From an uncultured bacterium (GTDB taxonomy: Bacteria; Patescibacteriota; Minisyncoccia; Phycocordibacterales; Phycocordibacteraceae): a stretch of DNA of 64,000 nucleotides. Below, piece after piece: positions 15,435 through 61,053 of this stretch. Each line of letters starts with the position of its first letter. The first letter of the stretch is position 1. The stretch spans positions 144,682 through 208,681 of the forward strand of contig CAVXAH010000001.1 of the NCBI GenBank assembly GCA_963759775.1. The letters run 5' to 3'. The notes under the pieces are model-generated. The model saw nothing but the letters and a program-made list of their open reading frames with translations, was not told the origin of the DNA and made no database searches. Both the position numbers and the translations under genes were made by a program.

Positions 15435-16121
15435 TTAGTACCCGGCTATGAGTTCCATTCCACTCGAGTCCGATAGTTGCTTAAATCTACTCGTCGTTGC
15501 CGTTGTTTCTGGCTTCCCAATCAAAGTTGCATACACGACAAGCCGTTTATCGTAGGTCATTCCTTCCTTCGCGTCATATATCCAATTTCCATCACACGTA
15601 ATCAGGGTCAGGCGTGCTCCCTCTGTGGGATTGCTTGTAATAGCCCGCATGGGCACTTCGTGGTACGGGTACGTCACAAGTTCGTCAACCGTAAACTGAT
15701 GTGATTCCCCGCGCCGATTCGTCACTTCTATCACCTCTCCGACTTTCAAACTTGCAAGATTCTTGAAAACCCCAGAAAGGCCGAGACCGTTGTTCCGGTG
15801 ACCATACATGACTGCCGTTCCCGACTGCCCCGGAGCAGGGCCGTAGCCATACCAGCCAACGTCATTATAGTTTTTAGGTGCCGCCATGCGATCGCCCTCA
15901 GTGACTCCAAGATCTTGTACAAAAGCGTCTATTGAAAGCGCTGCGATGGTGATACGGAGTGGGCGAAGCTCGGCGAGTGGAATATAAGGATACAAATTTT
16001 GAGTGGGGCTGGTTTCCGTGTGTGGCGCAAATACGAAAGCGTATGCCGTCGTGCGTACCAAAAGAATGGCCGCGACCAACATTGCCGCACCCACTCCATA
16101 CGTGAATAGGTGACGTGTCAT
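15435..16121 (-). CDS. sortase (transpeptidase) with N-terminal membrane anchor
   Basis: It has the catalytic His context VMYGHRN, the TLxTC motif RLTLITCDG and a downstream Arg (KRLVVYA). Confidence 0.8.
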   Translation of the reverse strand: MTRHLFTYGVGAAMLVAAILLVRTTAYAFVFAPHTETSPTQNLYPYIPLAELRPLRITIAALSIDAFVQDLGVTEGDRMAAPKNYNDVGWYGYGPAPGQSGTAVMYGHRNNGLGLSGVFKNLASLKVGEVIEVTNRRGESHQFTVDELVTYPYHEVPMRAITSNPTEGARLTLITCDGNWIYDAKEGMTYDKRLVVYATLIGKPETTATTSRFKQLSDSSGMELIAGY

Positions 16122-16357
16122 AGAGTGCTATCGCTGTGCGAGTACTCGTGTTGGTAGGTCTTGCGCAAATAACCAGACCCAAAGAGAAGGATAGCCAAAG
16201 AGCCCGCGATGAGTATGGCGTTAAAAATTGCACTTGCTCCTGCTCCTGTATTTGGTGTGGTCGTTGCGTACAGTGTTTGCGCAGAAGCCACATTCGCACT
16301 AAGCAACAGGAATGAGGAGAGAGTGAAGGTTCTGACGATGTTGGAGAGTAGTTTCAT
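16118..16357 (-). CDS. 79 aa mini-protein: signal peptide plus PxTG sorting signal only (putative minimal sortase substrate)
   Basis: The sequence is MKLLSNIVRTFTLSSFLLLSANVASA|QTLYATT-TPNTG-AGASAIFNAILIAGSLAILLFGSGYL-RK.... Its stop overlaps the sortase start (ATGA at 16118-16121). Confidence 0.6.
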   Translation of the reverse strand: MKLLSNIVRTFTLSSFLLLSANVASAQTLYATTTPNTGAGASAIFNAILIAGSLAILLFGSGYLRKTYQHEYSHSDSTL

Positions 16358-16405
16358 ACGAGCAGGTGAGAGTGATGCCGCTCGAACGAGAGATGTATGA
16401 CAGAA

Positions 16406-29169: not shown

Positions 29170-32934
<3,765 letters not shown>

Positions 32935-47229: not shown

Positions 47230-48027
47230 TTAATACGCCTCGCAATACGCATAGCTAGCGTTAAAAGCACCACAACAAACTCGACCACTTCCTCCTTTAT
47301 AAAACATTGAAACACCCGTGTTGTTTGGGTATTGTGGAGAGGTGCACTGCGACCCTGCAGATCCGGGGACGGCACCCGAACCAGGTGGTCCTGCTGGCCC
47401 TTGTGGTCCCGTTGCTCCCGAAGATCCCGGCGGTCCTTGAGGTCCCGTTGCTCCCGAAGATCCCGGCGGTCCTTGAGGTCCAGCGGGTCCACCTGGCCAC
47501 GCTGTTATACAACTTGCTCCAAGACAGAACTCATTTCCTTTCACACCACCCGCGACGTCGAGCTTCTTAGTGGGAGAAGTGTTGCCAATCCCTATATTGC
47601 CGGCTGAATTGATAGTCCATCCGTAACCAGCACTGGAGCGCCACGTGTAGAGACCACCATCGTTAGTCCAGATGTCCCAAGAGCCGGCTCCTGAGTCGGT
47701 GTCGGTGAGGGTGATTCCGGTGTGCGGTGAGCCCGCGATGTTGAGGACTTTTGCGACGCCGGCTGAGCTTGTTGGGTTTGTGGTGCCGATACCGACGTTG
47801 CCGTACTGGACGATAAGGCCGTTGGATGCCCCGCCGCTGTTGAGGAGGAGGCCACCTGTCTTTATGTTGGCGGTGGGACCCGTATCAAGAGGGGCGAGGG
47901 TGTTGTTGGTGGGTGGAGGAAATGAGGGTTCGGAGAAGGTTGCGGCAAAAGCGTTCAGGCCGAAGGAGACGGAAGCTGTCACGAGGACGGCGAACGTGGG
48001 AAGAATTAGATTGGATGATGATTTCAT
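47230..48027 (-). CDS. secreted collagen-like (G-X-Y repeat) protein with Cys-rich C-terminus
   Basis: It has a signal peptide and a Gly/Thr/Asn-rich beta-type region. These are followed by GPAGPQGPPGSSGATGPQGPPGSSGATGPQGPAGPPGSG, which is encoded by a 36 bp tandem duplication. Confidence 0.65.
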   Translation of the reverse strand: MKSSSNLILPTFAVLVTASVSFGLNAFAATFSEPSFPPPTNNTLAPLDTGPTANIKTGGLLLNSGGASNGLIVQYGNVGIGTTNPTSSAGVAKVLNIAGSPHTGITLTDTDSGAGSWDIWTNDGGLYTWRSSAGYGWTINSAGNIGIGNTSPTKKLDVAGGVKGNEFCLGASCITAWPGGPAGPQGPPGSSGATGPQGPPGSSGATGPQGPAGPPGSGAVPGSAGSQCTSPQYPNNTGVSMFYKGGSGRVCCGAFNASYAYCEAY

Positions 48028-48770: not shown

Positions 48771-51700
48771 ATGAGTAAGTTTATTCACCTGCATACTCAT
48801 AGTCATTACAGCTTTTTGCAGGCGCTTCCGAAGGTTGATGAGTTGGTAGACAAAGCAAAAGAGGAAGGGATGGATGCGGTAGCGCTCACCGACACGGGCA
48901 ACATGCACGGGGCGATTGAATTTTATAAAGCCGCTACGAAGGCGGGAATAAAACCGATTCTCGGCGTTGACGCATATCTCGCTCCGCGCTCGCGTTTTGA
49001 ACAAGACAGAAATATAGACAGCAAACGTTCCAAGATCGTTCTGCTTGCGGAAAACAATGAGGGATACACAAACCTTCTGTATGTGGTCACGAAGTCATGG
49101 ACCGAGGGATTTTTTGAGCGGCCGCGGCTTGATAAGGAGCTTCTCCGCGAGCGCAAAGGCGGCCTTATCGCGATACTCCCCTCCTTTGCAGGCGACGTCG
49201 CACAGCTCCTTCGCGCCGGAGACCCAAGTGGCGCCGCAGCCGCGCTCGCGGAATTCAAAGATATCTTCGGGGAAAAGAACGTATTTCTTGAAATCACGCA
49301 TCATCCAAAAGTGGAGGGTCACGAAGCGCTCATGAAAAAAATAATCGCCCTTGGGAAAGAGAGCGGCACGCCGCTTGTTGCCCAGCATGACGTGTACTAC
49401 CTTGCGCCTGAAGACCGCGAACCTACCGAAATCCTGCGCCGCATCCAGCAAGGCGAGCGCGGACGAAACGAAGAAGAAGACTTCTCTTTTATTGGCGAAA
49501 AACAGGCTCAAAAATTCTTCAAAGACCTCCCTGAGGCACTTGAGAATTCACGCAAAATCGCTGACCGCTGTACCGTTACGTTTGACCTCGGTAAATGGAC
49601 CTTCCCCACCGTTCCTGTCGGAAAAGGCTACAAAAACCACGCAGACGAGCTTCGAGCGAAAACGTACGAGGGAATTAAGACGCGCAATCTTGAGGAATCA
49701 AAAGAAGTGACCGACCGCATTGAATACGAACTCAAAATCATCAACGATAAAGGATTTGCGGTGTATTACCTCGTTGTGTCCGACCTCCTACAGTTTGCAA
49801 AGCGCGCTGGCATCCTCACCACCACACGCGGAAGTGCCGCAGGCTCTTTGGTTGCGTACCTCACCGGCATCACGAACGTTGACCCACTTTTCTACAAACT
49901 TCCTTTTGAACGATTCTTGAACCCCGAGCGCCCGAAAGCCCCCGATATTGACATGGACATCGCCGACAACCGACGCGACGACATGATCGCGTACGCGAAA
50001 CAAAAGTACGGTGAAGATCATGTGGCGCAAATCGGAACGTTTGGCACCATGATGGCGCGCGCCGCGGTGAGAGATGTCTCGCGAGCACTCGGTCACTCGT
50101 ACGGTACCGGCGACCGCATCGCAAAACTCATCCCCATTGGCTCGCAAGGTTTCCCGATGACCATTGATAACGCGATGAAGCTTGAGCCCGACCTCAAAGC
50201 TCTCTACGACGAAGACGAAGACTCCCGCGAAATCCTTGATCTCGCAAAGCGCATTGAGGGCTGTGTGCGGCACGTTGGTGTGCACGCCGCCGGCGTCGTC
50301 GTCGCTCCCACTCCGCTTATTGAGTGGGCCCCCATCCAACCCGACCCCAAGGGCACCGGAAAACTCATCACACAGTACGACATGTACTCAATAACGGACG
50401 AGTATGGGGGCGTAGGACTTCTGAAATTCGACTTTCTCGGAATCAAAAACCTTGCCATCCTCGCAGACTCGGTGACGCGCGTGAAGGCAACGCGCGACGT
50501 TGAAATTGATATTGAAAATGTGCCCGTCGACGATGCAAAGACTTTTGAAATGCTCGCGCGTGGCGAGACTGAAGGCACGTTCCAGTTAAACGGCTCGGGC
50601 ATGACTAGGTGGCTCAAAGACCTCAAGCCCACAACGATTCACGACATCAATGCCATGGTTGCGCTCTATCGCCCAGGACCGATGGAAACGATTCCTCAAT
50701 ACATTGAGCGTAAGAAAAATCCCAACCTCGTGAACTATCTTGATCCGCGCATGAAGGAATACCTTGAGTTCTCTCGCGGCGTCCTCGTGTACCAAGACGA
50801 CGTTCTTTTGACTGCCATTAAGCTTGGCGGATATTCCTGGCTTGAAGCGGACACACTCCGCAAAGCGATGGGCAAGAAAATTCCAAAGGTAATGATGGCT
50901 GAGAAAGAAAAATTGACCAAGGGTTTTGTGGAATACGGCAAGCTCACGCCCGCGAAAGCCGAGCAGTTGTGGAGCCTTATCGAGCCATTCGCCGCCTACG
51001 GCTTCAACAAGGCGCACGCCGCGAGCTACGGAAAAGTGGCATATCAGACGAGCTACATGAAAGCGAATTATCCGGTTGAGTACCTCGCCGCTCTTCTCAC
51101 GGCTGACAGCGGCAACACAGACGAAATCTCAAAATACGTTGCGGAAGCGAAGCGTATGAAAGTGCCCGTTCTGCCGCCAGATGTAAACGAAAGCGGAACC
51201 GACTTTACGGTCGTTGGGGACAAGAAAGACGTCATCCGATTTGGATTGTCCTCAATTAAAAACTTCGGCGACGGCGTCTCCCAGGCAATCATTGATGAGC
51301 GCAAGAAAAATGGCGCGTACAAGACGCTTGCGGACTTCCTTTCGCGCGTGGGCTCCAAAAATCTAAACAGGAAGTCGCTTGAGTCCCTCATCAAAGGCGG
51401 TGCGCTCGATTCCTTTGGAGAACGCGGCACCTTGCTTCTTAATATTGAAACCCTCCTCGCCTTCCACCGTGATGCGACCACGGAGGCGCCGCAGGATTCT
51501 CTTTTTGGCGCGTCTACTACCGCCGCCACACTTACGCTCAAGCCAGGTGCGCCGGTGTCGCTTAAAGACAAGCTTGAGTGGGAAAAAGAGCTGCTTGGTA
51601 TCTACGTTTCCGGCCACCCGCTCGATGCGCATGAAGGAACACTCGCGAAATCCAAACTTACGCTCGCAAAAATTAAGGAAGAGCCTCAGCCCGGACTCCC

Positions 51701-51941
51701 GATCATTCTTCCCCTTCTCGTCGCCGAAGTACGAACTATTCTCACCAAAAAAGGCGGTGAGAAAATGGCGTTCATCAAATTTGAAGACAAGACCGACTCC
51801 ATGGAAGCAGTCGTCTTCCCAAAACTCTTCAAAGAACACAGTGGTGCCATTGTCCCCGGTGCGTGCCTCCTTATAAAAGGCAACGTCTCAAACCGCAACG
51901 GCGAACTCTCCCTTTCAATTGAAAACCTAAAGGTGCTCTAG
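48771..51941 (+). CDS. dnaE: DNA polymerase III alpha subunit
   Basis: It has an N-terminal PHP domain (FIHLHTHSHYSFLQA), polymerase core motifs and a C-terminal OB fold. The 1056 aa frame is uninterrupted. Confidence 0.9.
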   Translation: MSKFIHLHTHSHYSFLQALPKVDELVDKAKEEGMDAVALTDTGNMHGAIEFYKAATKAGIKPILGVDAYLAPRSRFEQDRNIDSKRSKIVLLAENNEGYTNLLYVVTKSWTEGFFERPRLDKELLRERKGGLIAILPSFAGDVAQLLRAGDPSGAAAALAEFKDIFGEKNVFLEITHHPKVEGHEALMKKIIALGKESGTPLVAQHDVYYLAPEDREPTEILRRIQQGERGRNEEEDFSFIGEKQAQKFFKDLPEALENSRKIADRCTVTFDLGKWTFPTVPVGKGYKNHADELRAKTYEGIKTRNLEESKEVTDRIEYELKIINDKGFAVYYLVVSDLLQFAKRAGILTTTRGSAAGSLVAYLTGITNVDPLFYKLPFERFLNPERPKAPDIDMDIADNRRDDMIAYAKQKYGEDHVAQIGTFGTMMARAAVRDVSRALGHSYGTGDRIAKLIPIGSQGFPMTIDNAMKLEPDLKALYDEDEDSREILDLAKRIEGCVRHVGVHAAGVVVAPTPLIEWAPIQPDPKGTGKLITQYDMYSITDEYGGVGLLKFDFLGIKNLAILADSVTRVKATRDVEIDIENVPVDDAKTFEMLARGETEGTFQLNGSGMTRWLKDLKPTTIHDINAMVALYRPGPMETIPQYIERKKNPNLVNYLDPRMKEYLEFSRGVLVYQDDVLLTAIKLGGYSWLEADTLRKAMGKKIPKVMMAEKEKLTKGFVEYGKLTPAKAEQLWSLIEPFAAYGFNKAHAASYGKVAYQTSYMKANYPVEYLAALLTADSGNTDEISKYVAEAKRMKVPVLPPDVNESGTDFTVVGDKKDVIRFGLSSIKNFGDGVSQAIIDERKKNGAYKTLADFLSRVGSKNLNRKSLESLIKGGALDSFGERGTLLLNIETLLAFHRDATTEAPQDSLFGASTTAATLTLKPGAPVSLKDKLEWEKELLGIYVSGHPLDAHEGTLAKSKLTLAKIKEEPQPGLPIILPLLVAEVRTILTKKGGEKMAFIKFEDKTDSMEAVVFPKLFKEHSGAIVPGACLLIKGNVSNRNGELSLSIENLKVL

Positions 51942-53225: not shown

Positions 53226-53259
53226 GAAAAACACCCGCGATTTTGTCGCGGGTGTTTTC
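53226..53259. terminator. bidirectional rho-independent terminator
   Basis: The sequence is aaaaacacccgcga-ttttg-tcgcgggtgtttt, between convergent genes. Confidence 0.8.
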
Positions 53260-53298: not shown

Positions 53299-55551
53299 TT
53301 ATGCTCCGAGAGTTGCAAGTGCGCGTGTAAGTGCAAGCTTCGCACCCGTTACTCCGGTTGAGTAGCTCGCGTCAATCGCGGTCGTAAGTGAAGCGATTAC
53401 GCGCTCAAGTACTGGAGTGTCGCAGGAAGCGCAGATGCGCGCCACTTCTGGGTCGCATTCTGTACCGTCAACGCGTGCGCGGTATGCGTCATCAAGCGCG
53501 CAGGTTGTGTGTGTGAGGAGCTGTTCGACGTTCCCTCCGCCCTTAACGTGGTTTCGAAGCGTGCCGAAGACTCCGTCACGGTCGCGCTCAACAAGTGAAG
53601 CAATAAAGCCTCGTACGTGAGGAGCAACTCCCTTTCCGCCTTCGTGGCGCGCATGTGCTGTTTCTGTAGAGCGCGATGGAACGATAGGCTCAACTCGTTC
53701 GTAGATTGGTTCTACGCGCGGTGCTCGCTTGGACATGACTTCATCGAGCAAAACTGGTTCTGGAGCAGGCTTCTCAGAGACCGCTGTGTGGCGCGCAAGA
53801 CCTTTCACAATGTCTTCAATAGAGAGCTTTCCTTCGGTAGCAAATGATTTGAAGCCGTCATACGGTGAGTACGCGCGGCGCATAACCGGTGCTTCCACAG
53901 TCATCTCATAATGCATTTCTTCTGTTGGAGCCTCTACGACTTCCTCTACCGCTATCGGTGCGTAGGCAAGCTTCTCCGTGTTCAAGAGTGCGGAAACGCG
54001 TTCGCCAAAGGTGCGTGCGCCGCGCGCCGCAAACGGTACCGCTCCAAAAAGCACGAGATACGCGAGTGCGAGCGACCAGAGCACGAGAGCGAGCCAATAG
54101 AGCACGGTGCCCGCGGGGCCTAGATCAAGTCCGGTGTACGGAATTTGCGAAAGATAGAGGAACGCGAGTGGTTGCACCGCTGGTCCAGGAAGCGCCTGGA
54201 GAATGACTCGTGGGTTCCTGCTACCGCCGCCTCCACCACCTCCGCCTCCGCAGTTGCTCGTACAACCGCTTGTTTCAATAACTACGGCTGCTTCGCATGA
54301 GACTGTTTGCCCCGAAGCAGAAATAGCGGTTCCCGTGAACGTGATATTTGCCGTAATGGCGGGTGTTGCCACCGAGCCGCCAGCGACAGGCGTTGTAGAG
54401 CCGATGCCTTGGTTAATCGCAAAACTAACGGCGTTTGATGTGGTCCACGTAAGAGTTGATGTATTGCCGGAAGTAACGGTTGTAGGACTTGCGCTGAGTG
54501 TGCATACGGGCGCTGGAGGACCTCCTGGAGGGATTACCGTGACTGTCGCAGCACACGTGACGGTTCCACCTGCGCCTGTGGCAGTTCCCGTATACGTTGT
54601 GGTGCTTGAAAGCGCCGGAGTGGTTGTTGAACCAGCAGCAACCGGAGTCACCGAACCGATGCCCTGATCAATAGTGAACGCAGTGGCATTCGTGGTTGTC
54701 CACGAAAGCGTTGAAGTGCCACCTGTAGTCACAGAAGTCGGAGAAGCAGTAAGTGTGCAGACGGGTGCAGGAGGTGGTGGAGGAGTGGTTGAGATAGCGA
54801 CTGTTGCGCTACATGTAACTGTTCCACCTGCTCCTGTTGCAGTGCCAGTGTAGGTAGTCGTCGCGACAGGCGAAACCGAAGTTGAGCCGGCATCGACTGG
54901 AGTAACCGAACCAACGCCATTATCTATAACAAAAGATGTTGCATCCGATGTGGTCCACGAAAGGGTTGAGGTACCGCCCGGGGCAATGATGGTTGGCGAA
55001 GCAGTAAGGGTACATACCGGTACAACAGGCGCGGCCGGAGGAGGAGCGACATCAACCTGTGCGTCACAGGTCGTTTGTCCACCAGGACCATTCACGGTCA
55101 TTGTGTAAAGAGTGCTCGTAACTACGGTAACGTCGACAGAACCAGCGTCAACCGGACTCACCGAACCCACACCATTATCAATAGTGGCATCGGTCGCGGC
55201 TACGGTAGTCCACGAAAGTGTTGAGATTCCACCGCCAAAAGGAAGCGAGGTTGGAGAAGCAGAAAGCGTACAGGTTGGCGGAGGTGGAAGCGGTGGGGGT
55301 GGCGGAGGAGGTGGGGGCGGAGGTGGTGGTGGTGGCGGTGGCGGGGGTGGGGGCGGAGGAGGTGGTGGTGGAGGTGGAGGCGGTGGGACGCAGCAGGGTG
55401 GCAAAACTTGAGCAAGCACTTGTGAAGGTGTGGTAAGACCCGTCGCAAAAGCGATAGTCATGCCTGCGGCAACTGTTGCGAGAACGACAAAGAGCCCGAT
55501 CAAAATCGGATGGGCTTTTACGTATGAATTCTTTTTGCTTTTAGTTGTCAT
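53299..55551 (-). CDS. 750 aa surface protein: TM anchor, ~45-residue poly-proline stalk, four Cys-bounded Ig-like repeats, poly-Gly, IPYTG motif plus TM, cytoplasmic tail domain
   Basis: It starts with MTTKSKKNSYVKAHPILIGLFVVLATVAAG..., followed by PPCCVPPPP(P)n. Four repeats of about 85 aa follow, starting with CTL(S/T)ASPT..TSTL(S/T)WTT. The sequence then continues GGGGGGGGG, YLSQIPYTGL and a hydrophobic helix. The ORF-track extension to 55896 overlaps the upstream gene. Confidence 0.7.
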   Translation of the reverse strand: MTTKSKKNSYVKAHPILIGLFVVLATVAAGMTIAFATGLTTPSQVLAQVLPPCCVPPPPPPPPPPPPPPPPPPPPPPPPPPPPPPPPLPPPPTCTLSASPTSLPFGGGISTLSWTTVAATDATIDNGVGSVSPVDAGSVDVTVVTSTLYTMTVNGPGGQTTCDAQVDVAPPPAAPVVPVCTLTASPTIIAPGGTSTLSWTTSDATSFVIDNGVGSVTPVDAGSTSVSPVATTTYTGTATGAGGTVTCSATVAISTTPPPPPAPVCTLTASPTSVTTGGTSTLSWTTTNATAFTIDQGIGSVTPVAAGSTTTPALSSTTTYTGTATGAGGTVTCAATVTVIPPGGPPAPVCTLSASPTTVTSGNTSTLTWTTSNAVSFAINQGIGSTTPVAGGSVATPAITANITFTGTAISASGQTVSCEAAVVIETSGCTSNCGGGGGGGGGSRNPRVILQALPGPAVQPLAFLYLSQIPYTGLDLGPAGTVLYWLALVLWSLALAYLVLFGAVPFAARGARTFGERVSALLNTEKLAYAPIAVEEVVEAPTEEMHYEMTVEAPVMRRAYSPYDGFKSFATEGKLSIEDIVKGLARHTAVSEKPAPEPVLLDEVMSKRAPRVEPIYERVEPIVPSRSTETAHARHEGGKGVAPHVRGFIASLVERDRDGVFGTLRNHVKGGGNVEQLLTHTTCALDDAYRARVDGTECDPEVARICASCDTPVLERVIASLTTAIDASYSTGVTGAKLALTRALATLGA

Positions 55552-55651
55552 AATTTTTTGGGAATAATCCCCTGCCGCTTGCGCGGCGTATAAAAAAGAG
55601 GAGTTATCTGGGAGGCGCGATGTTTTGCGCCTCCCAGATAAAATGAAACTC

Positions 55652-56728
55652 TCAGAAGCACTGTCCGCCGAAGATCCAGCGCGTCTCTGCCGACTCTCCC
55701 GTAACGGTTTTGGCATTCGCTCGCGCGAGCGCCTTGTCGTCGTAGTAGATGGTTGCGATTTTCGTATCCTTGGTAGGAAGGTAGTCGAACCACCGTACGC
55801 CGATACCGCAGGAATGCCTTTGGACATAATCCTCGAAGATCCCCTGCTGAAGGAAGGCTTCTTCGTTCGAGGACGGTGGGTGCGCAAGTGCCGCATTGTT
55901 GCTGCGGTCCCAGCGATCGAGACAGAAAACCATTCGATACTTCGAATCGGCCTCTGCTACTTTTGCTGGGAGACGAAGCACATGCTCGCCTGGCGTTGGC
56001 GTAAAACTTCCTTTTTGCCAGCCCGATGCGCCGAGTACCTGATCAATGTGCTCGAAACTGCACCATTCATCGGCGCACTCCTCCACAAACGGCGACTCAA
56101 AGTTCTTCTCGCCGGCTCGCTTGAGGCCCGTGCATTCATCCGAAGACAAATCCGTCGGTCCGTATTGCTTGAGCCGCACAGCAGTGTCACCCTCTTTTGT
56201 GCGGAAGTGAATGAAGACGCAATTCTTCGCAAGGTCCGGTCCATCGATCGGATTTGCGCAGTCCTGCATCATCACCACCTTGCCAGTCACTGGATTCTTC
56301 CAGCCGGCCTCGCCTTTTTTAAAAGGACGCGATTCGCACTGTCGCAGAGGTTTTCCGAACTTCGAGGATTTGGTTGGTGTTTTAATGCACCATGACCAGT
56401 AGCTGCCTGTGAGACCATGAACCGGGACGAGGGATTCTACGTAGTTCGGCAACTCGCCGAGCGTTTTCAATCCCGCGCCTGTATCAATCTGCTGAAACGC
56501 TTCCAGAAAATCAATTGGACGCGCGCAGTAATGCCTTTTCGCGCACTGCTCAGGACTTACCGGACTTTCGCCCGTTTCGTCGAGAGCAAGGCTCTTTTCA
56601 AGCAGAACTGCGAGTTCAGCGGGGTTTTTCAAACCCCGCAAGAATGGATTGCCGAGCGGTGCAGCCTCGACCGAAACTGAACATCCGAGGATGAACAGCC
56701 CAGTGAGTACAGCAATGAGCTGTTTCAT
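55652..56728 (-). CDS. Cys-rich putative lipoprotein of unknown function
   Basis: It has a signal peptide with a lipobox (LFILGC) and 14 Cys residues. No domain was recognised. It lies between sortase 2 and the repeat protein. Confidence 0.55.
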   Translation of the reverse strand: MKQLIAVLTGLFILGCSVSVEAAPLGNPFLRGLKNPAELAVLLEKSLALDETGESPVSPEQCAKRHYCARPIDFLEAFQQIDTGAGLKTLGELPNYVESLVPVHGLTGSYWSWCIKTPTKSSKFGKPLRQCESRPFKKGEAGWKNPVTGKVVMMQDCANPIDGPDLAKNCVFIHFRTKEGDTAVRLKQYGPTDLSSDECTGLKRAGEKNFESPFVEECADEWCSFEHIDQVLGASGWQKGSFTPTPGEHVLRLPAKVAEADSKYRMVFCLDRWDRSNNAALAHPPSSNEEAFLQQGIFEDYVQRHSCGIGVRWFDYLPTKDTKIATIYYDDKALARANAKTVTGESAETRWIFGGQCF

Positions 56729-56819
56729 TTTCTCTTACTCCTCTATTGGTGCTGTCGTGAGACAGCGTGGAAAGAACAACTTTCTTTACCCTCCTTATGG
56801 AGAGCCATCGGATCTCGAG

Positions 56820-57506
56820 CTAGCTCGAGAGCTGATGGCTTTCTACAAAGTCTGCGACCACGACAAAACGGTCGCTCGTTGAACCGAACGAATCGCACGT
56901 TGAAAGCGTGAGGACCTTCCCCGAAACCGTAAGTGGAATACCGGCCGAGGTTGCGTCCTCCTTTGAGACACTCTTCACCCGGTAGGTATATGCCGTTTTA
57001 GACGCGTACACGGTTACAGTGTCGCCCTCTTTAAGCTTCTGGATGCCATTGAACGCTTTGAACGCTTGGTTATTTACCACAGGCAGGTAGCTTGCGTGGG
57101 CAAAGATGACGACGTTCCCAGCCTCTCCGAGCTTTGCTGAGGTTGGGTAGCGTACCGCTCCTTTAAGAAGAGCTTCGTCGAGTACCTCAATAGCCGTTGA
57201 AGTTGGGTTTGCGATGCTCACGGAAAGCGAGATTTTAGGAATCTCAATCTTCACCGGAACTTCCGAGACATTTGTGATAGTGCTCGTACCGGAGAGCGAA
57301 GCGGAGGGCGGAGCTACAAGAGAAGACGCGAGTGTCACATCTTGCGCTTCCACCGTCTTCACTTCTGGGAGGAGATCAGCCGCCGCGAGCACTGTGACGC
57401 TCATAAAGAACGTGCACAGAGAAAGAGCGAGGAAGGCCCACTTCCTCGTCCCTGCCTTTTGCGCGGCGAGGACAAGCCTCGCCGCGGTGTGAATGATGCC
57501 GTTCAT
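56820..57506 (-). CDS. sortase (second copy) with N-terminal membrane anchor
   Basis: It has the His context VIFAHASY, the TLxTC motif VLTLSTCDS and a downstream Arg (DRFVVVA). Confidence 0.8.
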   Translation of the reverse strand: MNGIIHTAARLVLAAQKAGTRKWAFLALSLCTFFMSVTVLAAADLLPEVKTVEAQDVTLASSLVAPPSASLSGTSTITNVSEVPVKIEIPKISLSVSIANPTSTAIEVLDEALLKGAVRYPTSAKLGEAGNVVIFAHASYLPVVNNQAFKAFNGIQKLKEGDTVTVYASKTAYTYRVKSVSKEDATSAGIPLTVSGKVLTLSTCDSFGSTSDRFVVVADFVESHQLSS

Positions 57507-57604
57507 ATGTAGAGTTCGTCTTGGCTATTAATACACCATGTAGTTTGTGGTGTCAAGCCCCCCTATTGACATAAAAAACACCCTGTGGTATGTATATACG
57601 CACT

Positions 57605-58351
57605 ATGAATACGAATTACGAAACAACTTCAAGCAACCGCACTGCGGCTATTAACGGCCTTGCGGTAGTTGGCTTTGTCGCACTCGTTGCGGGCGGTATG
57701 TGGCTCGCGGTTTATTCGGCACAATTTGTGCCGGCAGCCGTCTCACGCCTCGGCGCCGCGGCAGTCGCACTTACGCAAATCTTTAATCCGGCTCCTTCGG
57801 GGGGTCTCAGCGTCATTCCGACCGCGTCTACTACCCTTCCTTTCGGGAACGCCACGTCAACAGCTACTTCTACGGGCACGACTCCTTCTACAGGAACTAC
57901 GAAACCTACTCCAACTGCAGGAACACAAACCTCAACCACAGAACCAATTGGTGGCACAAATTCAGCGACACTCTTCGGTCTCTCTGACCTTGAAGTTACT
58001 ATCTCTACAGTTGGCTACCTTGCCTCAAGCGATCCAAACTCATTTGTCGCGGGAACTAAGGTTCCAAGTGGTGCTCGCCCTGCGGTGAAATTTACGATTA
58101 GAAACGTTGGCACGAACGCAAGCGGCGCATGGAAGTTCTCTGCTTCTATCCCAACCAAGCGTTCCTTCGTCTACAAATCAGCAAGTCAGCAGAACCTGAA
58201 CCCAGGTGAAAGCATTGACTACACGCTTGGCTTTGATGATGCACAGCGAGGTACTAATCAGGAGATTACTCTCACCGCTGATTATGAAGATAAGATTTCC
58301 GAGTCAAACGAAAAGAACAACAGCGCAGTCGCTGCAGTTACGATTCTCTAA
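57605..58351 (+). CDS. membrane-anchored CARDB-domain protein with Thr/Ser-rich linker
   Basis: An N-terminal TM is followed by a TSTATSTGTTPSTGTTKPTPTAGTQTSTT linker. The CARDB pattern then follows: DLEV...FTIRNVGTNASGAWKF...LNPGES...LTADYEDKISESNEKNN. Confidence 0.65.
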   Translation: MNTNYETTSSNRTAAINGLAVVGFVALVAGGMWLAVYSAQFVPAAVSRLGAAAVALTQIFNPAPSGGLSVIPTASTTLPFGNATSTATSTGTTPSTGTTKPTPTAGTQTSTTEPIGGTNSATLFGLSDLEVTISTVGYLASSDPNSFVAGTKVPSGARPAVKFTIRNVGTNASGAWKFSASIPTKRSFVYKSASQQNLNPGESIDYTLGFDDAQRGTNQEITLTADYEDKISESNEKNNSAVAAVTIL

Positions 58352-58947: not shown

Positions 58948-61053
58948 TATACGTCTAGGTTCGCGAGTTTTGCGTTGCTTTGTATAAAACTTTTGCGAGA
59001 AGGGACATCGGTTCCCATGAGGATGTCAAAAATACGATCTGCTTCTTGAGCGTCGTCTATCTTTACCTGCTTCAAGACGCGACGGTTCGGGTCCATCGTT
59101 GTCTCCCAAAGTTCAGACGGGTTCATCTCTCCAAGACCTTTGTATCGCTGGATATTTACCTTCGCGGCTTTCTTGGCGACAGCGACCTCCCCTTCTACGG
59201 CATCTTCTCCCTCAGTTGGGTTCTCCGAAAGTTCAGACGCTTTGACACCAAGTGTTTTCAAAGCTTTATCCTTTTCAGCATCTGTGTACACGTACTTCAC
59301 TTCCTTACCGCGCGAGATTTTGTACAACGGTGGCTGGGCGATGTAGACATACCCGCCGTCGATAATCGGGCGGAAGTGGCGATACAAAAGTGTAAGCAAG
59401 AGCGTGCGAATGTGTGCACCGTCTACGTCGGCGTCGGTCGCGATAATTATTTTGTGGTAGCGGAGTTTGTGATAGGTCAAAGACATCGCCAATGGCAGTA
59501 CCCATCGCAATCACAAGGTTCCTGATTTGCATGGAGTGCGAGCATCGGTCAATGCGCGCGCGCTCCACGTTCAAAATCTTTCCGCGAAGCGGAAGAATCG
59601 CCTGGGTACGGCGGTCACTCCCTGTCTTTGCGGTGCCACCTGCGGAATCTCCTTCCACAATGAATAGCTCTGCCTCTTCCGGCGACTTTTTACTTGGCAG
59701 TCAGCAAGTTTGCCCGGAAGCGTCATGCCTTCGAGCGCGCCCTTGCGGAGCACGGAGTCTTTCGCGGCCTTTGGCGGCTTTACGCGCCTTAAGCGCAAGC
59801 AATACCTTGTTTACGATTGACCGCGCGTCGTCCGGGTTCTCCTCAAGATACATCGCTGAAAATGCCTCCCCAAAGACGGTGGCGACGGCGCTTTGCTGCC
59901 TCAACCGAACCAAGCTTTGCTTTGGTCTGTCCTTCAAACTGAATCTCCGGAAGTTTTACGGAAATAACGGCTGTGATGACCCTCAAGCACATCATCGCCC
60001 GTAAAGTTCTCATCTTTTTCTTTCAGGATGTTTGCATTCCGACCATAGGCATTGAGTGTACGGGTAAGCGCTGTTTTAAAACCCGTGACATGTGTACCGC
60101 CTTCGCTGTTGTAGGTGTTGTTCGCAAAAGCAGTAATGCGCGGCGTGATGTCGTCTACGTATTGAAGTGCCACTTCTACCATTACTTCTTCTTTTGCTCC
60201 CTCAGGCTTCACGGAACGGTCAATATAGAAAATATTCTTGTGTACCGCTGCTTGATGCTTGTTATAAAATGCGACGAGCGATTTCAGACCGCCTTCAAAA
60301 TAAAACGACATCGACGGGACCTCGAGTGGAGGTCTCGCGGAGATAGAAAGTCTCCTCGTCCTCACAAGCTTCTCTGCGCTACGCGCATCAATGACCGTGA
60401 TGCGCTACGCCTTTCACGAGATACGCCTGCTGGCGCAAGTGCGAGACGATCTTCTCCCAGTTCCAGAGAATACCGTCAGTGAAAATCGTGTCATCCGGCT
60501 TGAAAACGACGACCGTGCCGTGAAGCTTTGAGGTGCCGATTTTCTTTACCTTTCCAAGCGCCTTTCCGATTTTGTATGCCTGCGTGTGAATTCCTCCGTC
60601 CTGGTGCACAAACACTTTCGTATCAACCGAAAGAGCGTTCACGACGGAGGCGCCGACGCCGTGAAGACCGCCTGAGACTTTGTATCCGCTTCCCTCTCCG
60701 CCGAACTTTCCCCCGGCGTGGAGCGTTGTCATCACCGTCTCAAGTGCCGAGACTTTTGTTTTTGCATGAATACCAACCGGAATACCGCGGCCGTTGTCTA
60801 CCACGCGTACGTAACCATCCGGCAGAAGCGCTACCTCAATTTCGCTTGCGTGTCCGCCCATCGCCTCGTCGCGCGCGTTATCAAAAATCTCCCAAATCAG
60901 GTGGTGGAGACCATCGGGACCAGTCGTCCCGATATACATTCCGGGGCGCTTTCGGACCGGCTCAAGACCCTCAAGAACGGTAATAGAAGAGGCGTCATAT
61001 GAGGCGCCTTTTGCTGCCCTATTTTTTTGCTCTTTTTCTGCTGTTTTAGCCAT
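58947..61053 (-). pseudogene. gyrB: DNA gyrase subunit B, reading frame interrupted about 6 times
   Basis: The GHKL ATPase N-terminus (VRKRPGMYIG, DNGRGIP, LHGVGASVVNALS) is in 60388-61053. The transducer is in 59934-60365. TOPRIM (EGDSAGG) is in 59305-59658. The tail ([26 protein letters not shown]) is in 58947-59510. Confidence 0.9.

Follow-up and report, generated by a model that had tools for sequence, protein, structure and literature searches.

An LPXTG-like motif followed by a conserved cytoplasmic tail in a sortase-linked family of predicted surface proteins from Patescibacteria

Background

To our knowledge, all characterised sorting signals of sortase substrates are C-terminal, and the stub that remains in the membrane, which in a canonical substrate measures roughly 30 residues, is usually treated as waste. 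Certain sortases are paired with dedicated substrates, as is the case for SrtB with its NPQTN targets and for the class GN "marine" sortase, which serves one family of targets. A remnant with a role of its own is found in the C-pep sensing of Streptococcus gordonii: the membrane remnant left by sortase cleavage reports adhesin processing to the cell interior, C-pep being an ordinary short transmembrane (TM) peptide that is read by a separate intramembrane two-component system (Hall et al. 2019, as summarised in PMC7763024). Here we describe a locus in a stretch of 64,000 nucleotides (nt), henceforth the window, of an uncultured bacterium of the Phycocordibacteraceae (Patescibacteriota; contig CAVXAH010000001.1 of assembly GCA_963759775.1, positions 144,682 to 208,681), in which a sortase gene neighbours a gene for a predicted surface-protein precursor whose LPXTG-like pentapeptide, IPYTG, is followed by a TM helix and a further cytoplasmic domain. 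Full-text literature searches returned nothing on the family to which this precursor belongs, and no description of a sorting signal that is followed by a folded cytoplasmic domain.

Results and discussion

A putative internal sorting signal in an unannotated protein family

Three consecutive genes on the minus strand of the window encode a 228-residue sortase (56820-57506; sortase 2 in the following), a 358-residue Cys-rich exported protein (55652-56728) and, in a long open reading frame (ORF) that ends at 53299, the target protein of this study. The stop-to-stop frame of this ORF reaches 55896, and we chose the start at 55551, which yields 750 amino acids (aa), because MTTKSKKNSYVKAHP (MTTKSKK..., basic) and the hydrophobic core match the N-termini of homologues. 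From its N-terminus onward the protein displays an n-region with a hydrophobic segment, PPCC, a proline run, four repeats, CTSNC with nine glycines, a stretch that leads to PLAFLYLSQIPYTGLDLGPAGT, a hydrophobic helix, RGAR and finally 241 aa. All the parts listed in an initial annotation of this DNA, namely PPCCV, four Cys-bounded repeats, CTSNC with nine glycines, LSQIPYTGL, the hydrophobic helix and the basic residues, were recovered in the sequence, as was the additional domain of about 240 aa that it had placed after the sorting signal. IPYTG is the sole [LIVM]PxTG ahead of a hydrophobic stretch in the whole 64-kb window.

The C-terminal module, comprising YLSQ-IPYTG-LDLGP, the TM helix and the tail, defines an unannotated protein family. 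A search with the last 307 aa recovered more than 213 proteins with 42-64% identity, all of them from Paceibacteria/Kaiserbacteria-type sources and all labelled "hypothetical", while a profile search of 1.84 billion cluster representatives returned 1085 matches at E <= 1e-3 and 151 at E <= 1e-30. Scanning one genome per species, we detected relatives of the module in at least 184 GTDB species genomes, all of Patescibacteria (Kaiserbacteria/Paceibacteria). The module is nearly always C-terminal, with a short extension in a few distant members, and the N-terminal regions that precede it range from 0 to about 1100 aa. These regions vary widely across the family and include Cys-bounded repeats, "YGCMD..ATNYN" repeats, "CPNI.GNQ" repeats and SpaA-type domains (PF19403 and, faintly, PF17802), the last of which are typical of sortase substrates. 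Sequence searches of Pfam, NCBIfam and PDB revealed no family for either the target protein or its tail; the best PDB profile matches, phycobilisome-linker domains at E 0.077-1.2, were rejected as too weak. Homologues of about 275 aa that appear to consist of the module only ("MLPHV..PLAYLYLSQIPYTG") were considered as evidence of an N-terminal motif, which would have altered the inference of topology, and discarded, as the DNA shows them to be truncated gene calls inside full-length ORFs.

An unbiased alignment of 25 sequences (A1) shows no variation at P, T and G of the motif, nor at the surrounding L, S, L, L, G, Y and W, and the segment around the motif is the most conserved part of the protein. 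The conservation that the initial annotation had named as decisive for its proposal is borne out: an xPxTG pentapeptide precedes the TM helix in 110 of 120 close homologues (IPYTG in 92, IPQTG in 6, MPYTG and VPYTG in 4 each, and IPKTG, LPYTG, TPYTG and APYTG in one each), and in a set of 139 further representatives it is carried by all full-length proteins, even those with profile matches no better than E 1e-31 to 1e-38. The ten close homologues that lack it comprise eight gene calls starting inside or after the motif, one chimeric-looking protein (P0086), and P0045, a protein with almost no ectodomain in which the motif is degenerate (IPYIG, T to I). Three members (P0175, P0211 and P0248) that a hydrophobicity threshold had made candidates for motif-less proteins were dropped, all three carrying the motif, and subfamilies with diverged tails read FVTLSQIPYTG(F/Y)(D/E)(A/T)GP. 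Across about 200 members the first position is I, V, L or M, and also T or A, and the variable X is Y, Q, K or S, with an additional IPRTG variant in one locus (L058). With P and TG fixed and the first position and X free to vary, the motif follows the pattern of constraint of LPXTG signals.

The motif is part of a tripartite signal, in which a 6-residue spacer links it to a hydrophobic helix of about 26-29 residues that is followed by a K/R cluster. In 195 family proteins, the 28 residues up to the TM helix contain a mean of 0.27 K+R, as against 3.3 in the 20 residues after it. Given these basic residues after the TM helix, the N-terminal export signal and the disulfide-type repeats, IPYTG is placed on the outer face of the membrane at a distance of a few residues, and the tail in the cytoplasm, in agreement with the orientation on which the initial annotation had made its proposal depend. 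Consistent with this division of the signal, an AlphaFold2 (AF2) model renders the TM segment as a long helix with a predicted local distance difference test score (pLDDT) above 90 and the motif as coil. The signal does not occupy the extreme C-terminus as in LPXTG proteins: 241 residues follow the TM helix here, and across the family the number ranges from 70 to 342, with a median of 236.

Sortase 2 and a conserved gene cluster

The identification of the upstream gene as a sortase is upheld by a PF04203 match of 78.1 bits (E 6e-22; cut-off 26.6). The 228-residue protein has an N-terminal membrane anchor, and 50 orthologues taken from related loci retain its H137, C204 (LTLSTC; TLxTC) and R213. 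It falls under the cut-off of every NCBIfam sortase class (A-F and GN), the best being class E with 48.9 bits against 160, and the nearest solved structure, 2KW8, which we take to be a Bacillus anthracis sortase, matches at only E 1e-5. In a search for homologues of this sortase, all matches listed were close orthologues. These features mark it as a genuine sortase of an uncharacterised lineage.

A census of gene linkage, in which the window proteins served as phmmer queries against the six-frame ORFs of 85 loci and loci were scored where at least 3.5 kb upstream of the target gene was available, recovered a same-strand sortase upstream of the target in 47 of 47 scored loci, with a gap of -18 to 2836 nt (median 1135). 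The co-occurrence of the motif family with this sortase class, which the initial annotation had suggested surveying, is accordingly complete in the scored set. A homologue of the Cys-rich protein was detected in 21 related loci, and a gene for a CARDB-domain protein is adjacent in nearly all related loci. In three loci (L001, L003 and L005) the order is gyrB, the CARDB protein on the opposite strand, sortase, exported protein, target, thrS and dnaE. In three others (L028, L043 and L072) gyrB, thrS and dnaE are gone from the flanks, and the sortase, Cys-rich protein, target and CARDB genes still stand together, all on one strand. The distant member P0248 (SQVPYTGFEAGP) likewise has a sortase immediately upstream. 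A look-up in the reverse direction, outward from two sortase orthologues, covered gene order and Pfam content and recovered the same order of genes, a large gene free of Pfam matches standing between the sortase and thrS. In about 1.2 Mb of related flanks, no credible xPxTG-TM protein was found beyond the family itself and one paralogue. This paralogue (locus L051, 4688-6697, plus strand) has a signal peptide, an ectodomain, YLSQAPYTG, a TM helix, RIRR and about 30 residues, after which a CARDB protein follows in frame and the tail domain is absent; it may stem from a natural fusion or from the loss of a stop codon. The sorting signal is therefore separable from the tail.

Proposed processing of the precursor and competing explanations

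We consider it probable that these genes constitute a conserved four-gene surface module of Kaiserbacteria/Paceibacteria, in which a dedicated sortase, a secreted Cys-rich protein and a CARDB protein accompany a large surface-protein precursor, and that sortase 2 cleaves this precursor between T473 and G474. In such a scheme the N-terminal signal would export the precursor, the variable, Lys-poor and Thr/Pro-rich ectodomain would remain outside, and translocation would be halted by the TM helix, which is preceded by (Y/F)(L/V)YLSQ-[IVLM]P[YQKS]TG-L(D/E)LGP and followed by basic residues. The neighbouring sortase would then cut at T473/G474 and move the ectodomain to an envelope nucleophile, most likely a peptidoglycan precursor. 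In contrast to the short stub of canonical substrates, what remains would be a protein of about 275 residues that stays anchored in the membrane and whose conserved cytoplasmic domain ends in a six-helix bundle. The tail might either position or retain the precursor before cleavage, or serve afterwards as an intracellular scaffold or signal that stands in a 1:1 ratio to the displayed adhesin. Of this scheme, the architecture and its conservation, the intact sortase and the gene linkage are observed, along with a topology read from the charge bias, and cleavage, acceptor and function of the tail are inferred.

A more far-reaching form of this idea, which we put forward only tentatively, sees the sortase as a precursor-splitting enzyme. 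Its two products would be a wall-linked variable adhesin and a conserved membrane-tethered cytoplasmic protein that bears EP(I/V)YE repeats and a collar-like oligomerisation bundle. The amount of this second fragment might report the displayed adhesin one for one; alternatively, the fragment might organise an intracellular partner where display takes place.

The main rival to cleavage is that the target is an uncleaved bitopic (type I) receptor or adhesin, in which the IPYTG segment would be structural or would bind a partner (the Cys-rich protein, or by oligomerisation), the bundle would relay or anchor what is bound by the ectodomain, and the sortase would serve other substrates or be linked merely by inherited order. 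We regard this as rather unlikely, and several observations nevertheless favour it and weigh against processing by sortase 2. Relative to the TG, positions L-3, S-2, Q-1, L+1, D/E+2, L+3, G+4, P+5, G+7, T+8, Y+11 and W+12 are near-invariant; this conservation extends far beyond what characterised sortases need, and the segment may therefore have another or an additional role. The tail, which is always in cis, surpasses the ectodomain in conservation, and the fusion of a conserved tail to an ectodomain would be most sensible if the two stayed connected for transmembrane signalling, a connection that cleavage breaks. A scan of the 750-aa protein against the NCBIfam library, which we take to include an LPXTG-anchor model (presumably TIGR01167), yielded no family at E <= 1. 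Sortase 2 belongs to no characterised class from which a motif preference could be taken over. Nearly all loci come from one clade with gyrB to dnaE synteny, hence the adjacency of sortase and target could largely be inherited gene order; most of the synteny is clade-wide and the wider synteny is broken in only three or four loci. Finally, a terminator-like hairpin from a consensus scan separates the target gene from the sortase operon.

Against the uncleaved receptor, on the other hand, three features together reproduce a sorting signal: a P-x-T-G that is exact apart from its variable X, its distance from the TM helix and the basic cluster. In and around the 47 clusters we found no other candidate substrate, and the cluster moves as a unit. 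The same signal occurs in the L051 paralogue without the tail. Moreover, the motif is degenerate in P0045, the sole member with almost no ectodomain.

We deem it improbable that sortase 2 cuts between T and G but ligates the ectodomain to a protein, be it another copy of itself in a pilus-like or head-to-tail fashion, the CARDB protein or the Cys-rich protein, so as to build a covalent surface assembly. The constant presence of two further exported proteins in the cluster, the Gly-rich mature N-termini of some family members and the SpaA-type domains in some ectodomains would suit such a reaction. Yet the ectodomain encoded in the window has no Lys and the family median is 0.9%, so that the protein itself offers no Lys nucleophile of the pilin type; no pilin motif was found, the cluster does not encode a second sortase of the pilus type, and the predicted mature N-terminus here is Thr rather than Gly. 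The specific version in which the Lys of a pilin motif acts as nucleophile was rejected, as the 432-aa ectodomain is devoid of Lys.

An artefact, in which a misassembly or a false frameshift would have joined a canonical substrate to an independent tail gene, can be dismissed: apparent indels in the window (aligning gyrB, 58950-61053 on the minus strand, to a homologue needs three frame changes, and the rpoC ORF, 29170-32202 on the minus strand, begins inside Rpb1 domain 1) would speak for it, but the comparative data refute it, with the same continuous architecture in the GTDB species genomes counted above, and in more than 1000 representative clusters, from independent assemblies, with full ORFs in L001, L003 and L086, and with a tail that never has a start or signal of its own. 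The gyrB and rpoC frames indicate that the window assembly probably carries indels, the alternative being that essential genes are disrupted, and they lower trust in reading frames across the window; despite these signs, the architecture of the target gene is confirmed by many independent assemblies.

If sortase 2 does cleave the precursor, surface display would be coupled to an intracellular product, which would be a new use of a sortase, and a true split of the precursor into two functional proteins would make the system a bacterial, sortase-based counterpart of cleavage-coupled receptors. The proposed cleavage is open to an in vitro test with a recombinant sortase domain and the synthetic peptide AFLYLSQIPYTGLDLGP. 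Should no cleavage occur, the family would still be an uncharacterised, clade-defining receptor with an LPXTG look-alike. Either way, the cluster offers a handle on how uncultivated, probably episymbiotic, ultra-small and host-dependent Patescibacteria build and monitor their attachment surface.

The N-terminus and the ectodomain

The N-terminal TM anchor of the initial annotation holds insofar as a hydrophobic segment and a basic n-region are present; a predicted AFA/T site leaves room for a signal peptide too. Similar AxA sites are seen at the N-termini of homologues (ALA/TG and AHA/D), and the N-terminus of the target might possibly be either a cleavable signal peptide or an uncleaved anchor. 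The proline run that follows had been put at about 45 prolines, forming a polyproline-II rod of roughly 14 nm, and both values needed correction: the run consists of 32 P, an L and 4 P, that is 36 prolines after PPCCV or 38 with the PP before CC, and the recount would give a rod of roughly 11 nm. It uses all four CCN codons and is therefore no homopolymer artefact. A pure poly-Pro run is particular to this genome, the stalks of homologues being mixed Pro-rich or Gly/Asp-rich. The dependence on EF-P for translating such a run, raised earlier, follows from established knowledge and here concerns a lineage-specific low-complexity stalk.

The four Cys-bounded repeats are presumably Ig-like. The ectodomain as a whole (aa 36-467, nt 54151-55446; 432 aa) contains 19% Thr, 17% Pro and 0 Lys, and the ectodomains of the family have a median of 0.9% Lys compared to 2.5% in the family tails. 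This scarcity of Lys could reflect evasion of proteases, or the avoidance of side reactions with sortases or isopeptide formation. Two Cys features flank the ectodomain. Shortly after the N-terminal signal, 35 of 77 full-length homologues have a CC dyad (55393-55398 here). Immediately ahead of the module, 39 of the 77 have a CxxxC with a Gly run behind it (CTSNC at 54250-54264 here), and a run of five or more glycines is present in 57. Both recur even in distant subfamilies. It is conceivable that the two Cys at either end of the ectodomain pair and thereby join its ends, or link it to the Cys-rich partner.

The secreted Cys-rich protein

The protein encoded between the sortase and target genes has 30 homologues, all in Paceibacteria-type contigs. 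Its description as a Cys-rich lipoprotein stands in its first half, as an alignment of 27 homologues (A2) displays 10 conserved Cys. Its second half is doubtful: the window protein has ILGC, but this lipobox Cys is not a conserved column of A2, and we therefore prefer the name secreted Cys-rich protein. A signal-peptidase-I-type junction (..A/AAPxGxPF) is conserved in the homologues, and the protein of locus L003 has ASA/TP without a Cys. Searches of Pfam and NCBIfam produced no match for this protein. Its AF2 model has a pLDDT of 88 and a predicted TM-score (pTM) of 0.84, and Foldseek comparison of this model against the PDB gave only meaningless beta-sandwich matches (TM-score <= 0.18, root-mean-square deviation (rmsd) >10 Å).

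The cytoplasmic tail

The tail is made up of a variable linker, a YSxYDGFKSFA..LSIEDIVKGL motif (here YSSYDGFKSFA..GALSIEDIVKGL, aa 561-590), an EP(I/V)YE linker and a six-helix bundle, which occupies the last ~105 aa and is modelled by AF2 with a pLDDT of about 95. The best Foldseek matches of the bundle in PDB and BFVD, all of them weak, are to domain III, the collar, of the clamp-loader gamma, tau and delta subunits, and the C-terminal domains of MgsA/RarA are also among the PDB matches. The gamma/tau matches have an rmsd of 2.3-2.8 Å over about 110-115 columns at a probability of 1.0; the E values of the bundle run from 4.5e-3 at best up to 1e-1, and identity is 14-16% to the PDB gamma/tau chains and 6% to the best BFVD match. 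With respect to membership of clamp-loader domain III, the tail gave no Pfam or PDB profile match and has no AAA+ ATPase module. The resemblance to the clamp-loader collar is one of fold, short of established homology, and hints at an oligomerisation domain.

Tandem (V/I)EP(I/V)YE repeats occur in 1-3 copies in 105 of 199 family tails, and here as RVEPIYERVEPIVP (53650-53700, minus strand, aa ~618-632). They resemble EPIYA-type tyrosine motifs and might constitute a docking or phosphorylation site. In most genomes the gene for this collar-like bundle sits in the cluster between gyrB (58950-61053 in the window) and dnaE (48771-51941), a setting that is probably coincidental, because the cluster lies away from both genes in three loci.

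Other features of the window

A second sortase of the window (sortase 1), different in lineage from sortase 2, surfaced only through its TLxTC motif and Pfam, a phmmer search of the window for paralogues of sortase 2 having found none. Directly upstream of it, a 79-aa ORF (16121-16360, minus strand; MKLLSN...VASAQTLYATTTPNTGAGASAIFNAILIAGSLAILLFGSGYLRKTYQHEYSHSDSTL) combines a signal peptide, about 11 mature residues, TTPNTG, a TM helix and RK. It resembles a canonical sortase substrate in miniature, the anchored product of which would be a mere peptide, and sortase 1 together with this PNTG ORF suggests that canonical sorting also operates in this organism. The gene at 47230-48027 (minus strand), a few kb from the cluster, encodes 265 aa that include collagen triple-helix repeats (PF01391, E 2e-6); its product may be another surface fibre. 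The coordinates of all features are collected in Table 1.

Table 1. Features of the sortase 2 cluster, the target protein and sortase 1 (positions in the window)
Feature	Position	Strand	Basis
Sortase 2, membrane-anchored cysteine transpeptidase with H137, C204 (TLSTC), R213	56820-57506	-	PF04203
Secreted Cys-rich protein, 358 aa, usually between sortase and target gene	55652-56728	-	
Terminator-like hairpin, 15-bp stem then T run, between Cys-rich protein gene and target gene	55604-55641	-	Consensus scan only
Target gene, 750-aa predicted surface-protein precursor, internal sorting signal and cytoplasmic tail	53299-55551	-	
N-terminal signal peptide or signal anchor, aa 1-36: K-rich n-region, 21-aa hydrophobic core, predicted AFA/T site	55444-55551	-	Read from sequence
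PPCC dyad and proline run (32 P, L, 4 P), aa 51-92	55276-55401	-	
Four Cys-bounded ~85-aa repeats, aa 93-428, Thr/Ser/Gly-rich	54268-55275	-	Alignment of the four repeats; composition
CTSNC then Gly9, aa 430-443	54223-54264	-	
IPYTG, aa 470-474, LPXTG-type pentapeptide within the conserved segment YLSQIPYTGLDLGP	54130-54144	-	
TM helix, aa 481-509, then RGAR	54025-54111	-	AF2 helix; charge asymmetry
Cytoplasmic tail, aa 510-750	53302-54024	-	Alignment A1, AF2, Foldseek
C-terminal six-helix bundle of the tail, aa 644-747	53311-53622	-	AF2
Membrane-anchored CARDB-domain protein, divergently transcribed, constant cluster member	57590-58351	+	PF07705, E 1e-10
Terminator-like hairpin after target gene	53227-53259	-	Consensus scan only
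Sortase 1, lineage different from sortase 2, own substrate	15435-16121	-	PF04203

Comparison with known systems

The collar-like bundle is akin to clamp-loader domain III and the MgsA/RarA C-terminal domain in its helical superposition, and differs from them in being membrane-tethered and in lacking an AAA+ module. The C-pep circuit of S. gordonii is the nearest functional precedent for a meaningful remnant; in contrast to C-pep, the remnant proposed here would itself bear a 240-aa cytoplasmic domain, and no two-component link is seen. Dedicated pairs such as SrtB or the class GN sortase with their targets share with our cluster the arrangement of one sortase beside one target family and an unusually conserved sorting region, whereas their targets end at the sorting signal.

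A further likeness is to the sortase-anchored LPXTG proteins of Gram-positive bacteria, with which the family shares an export signal, a variable repeat ectodomain, an [ILVM]PxTG motif with invariant P, T and G, a spacer, a hydrophobic helix, a basic cluster and a sortase with His, Cys and Arg encoded next door. It departs from the canonical form in that the signal is not C-terminal, a conserved tail that includes a folded helical domain (median length 236 aa for the tail) standing behind it, in that the flanks YLSQ...LDLGPxGT..YW are near-invariant, in that the Pro-rich stalk stands at the N-terminal end rather than beside the motif, and in that the sortase lies outside classes A-F and GN by the NCBIfam cut-offs, with a target protein that likewise falls outside the NCBIfam families at E <= 1.

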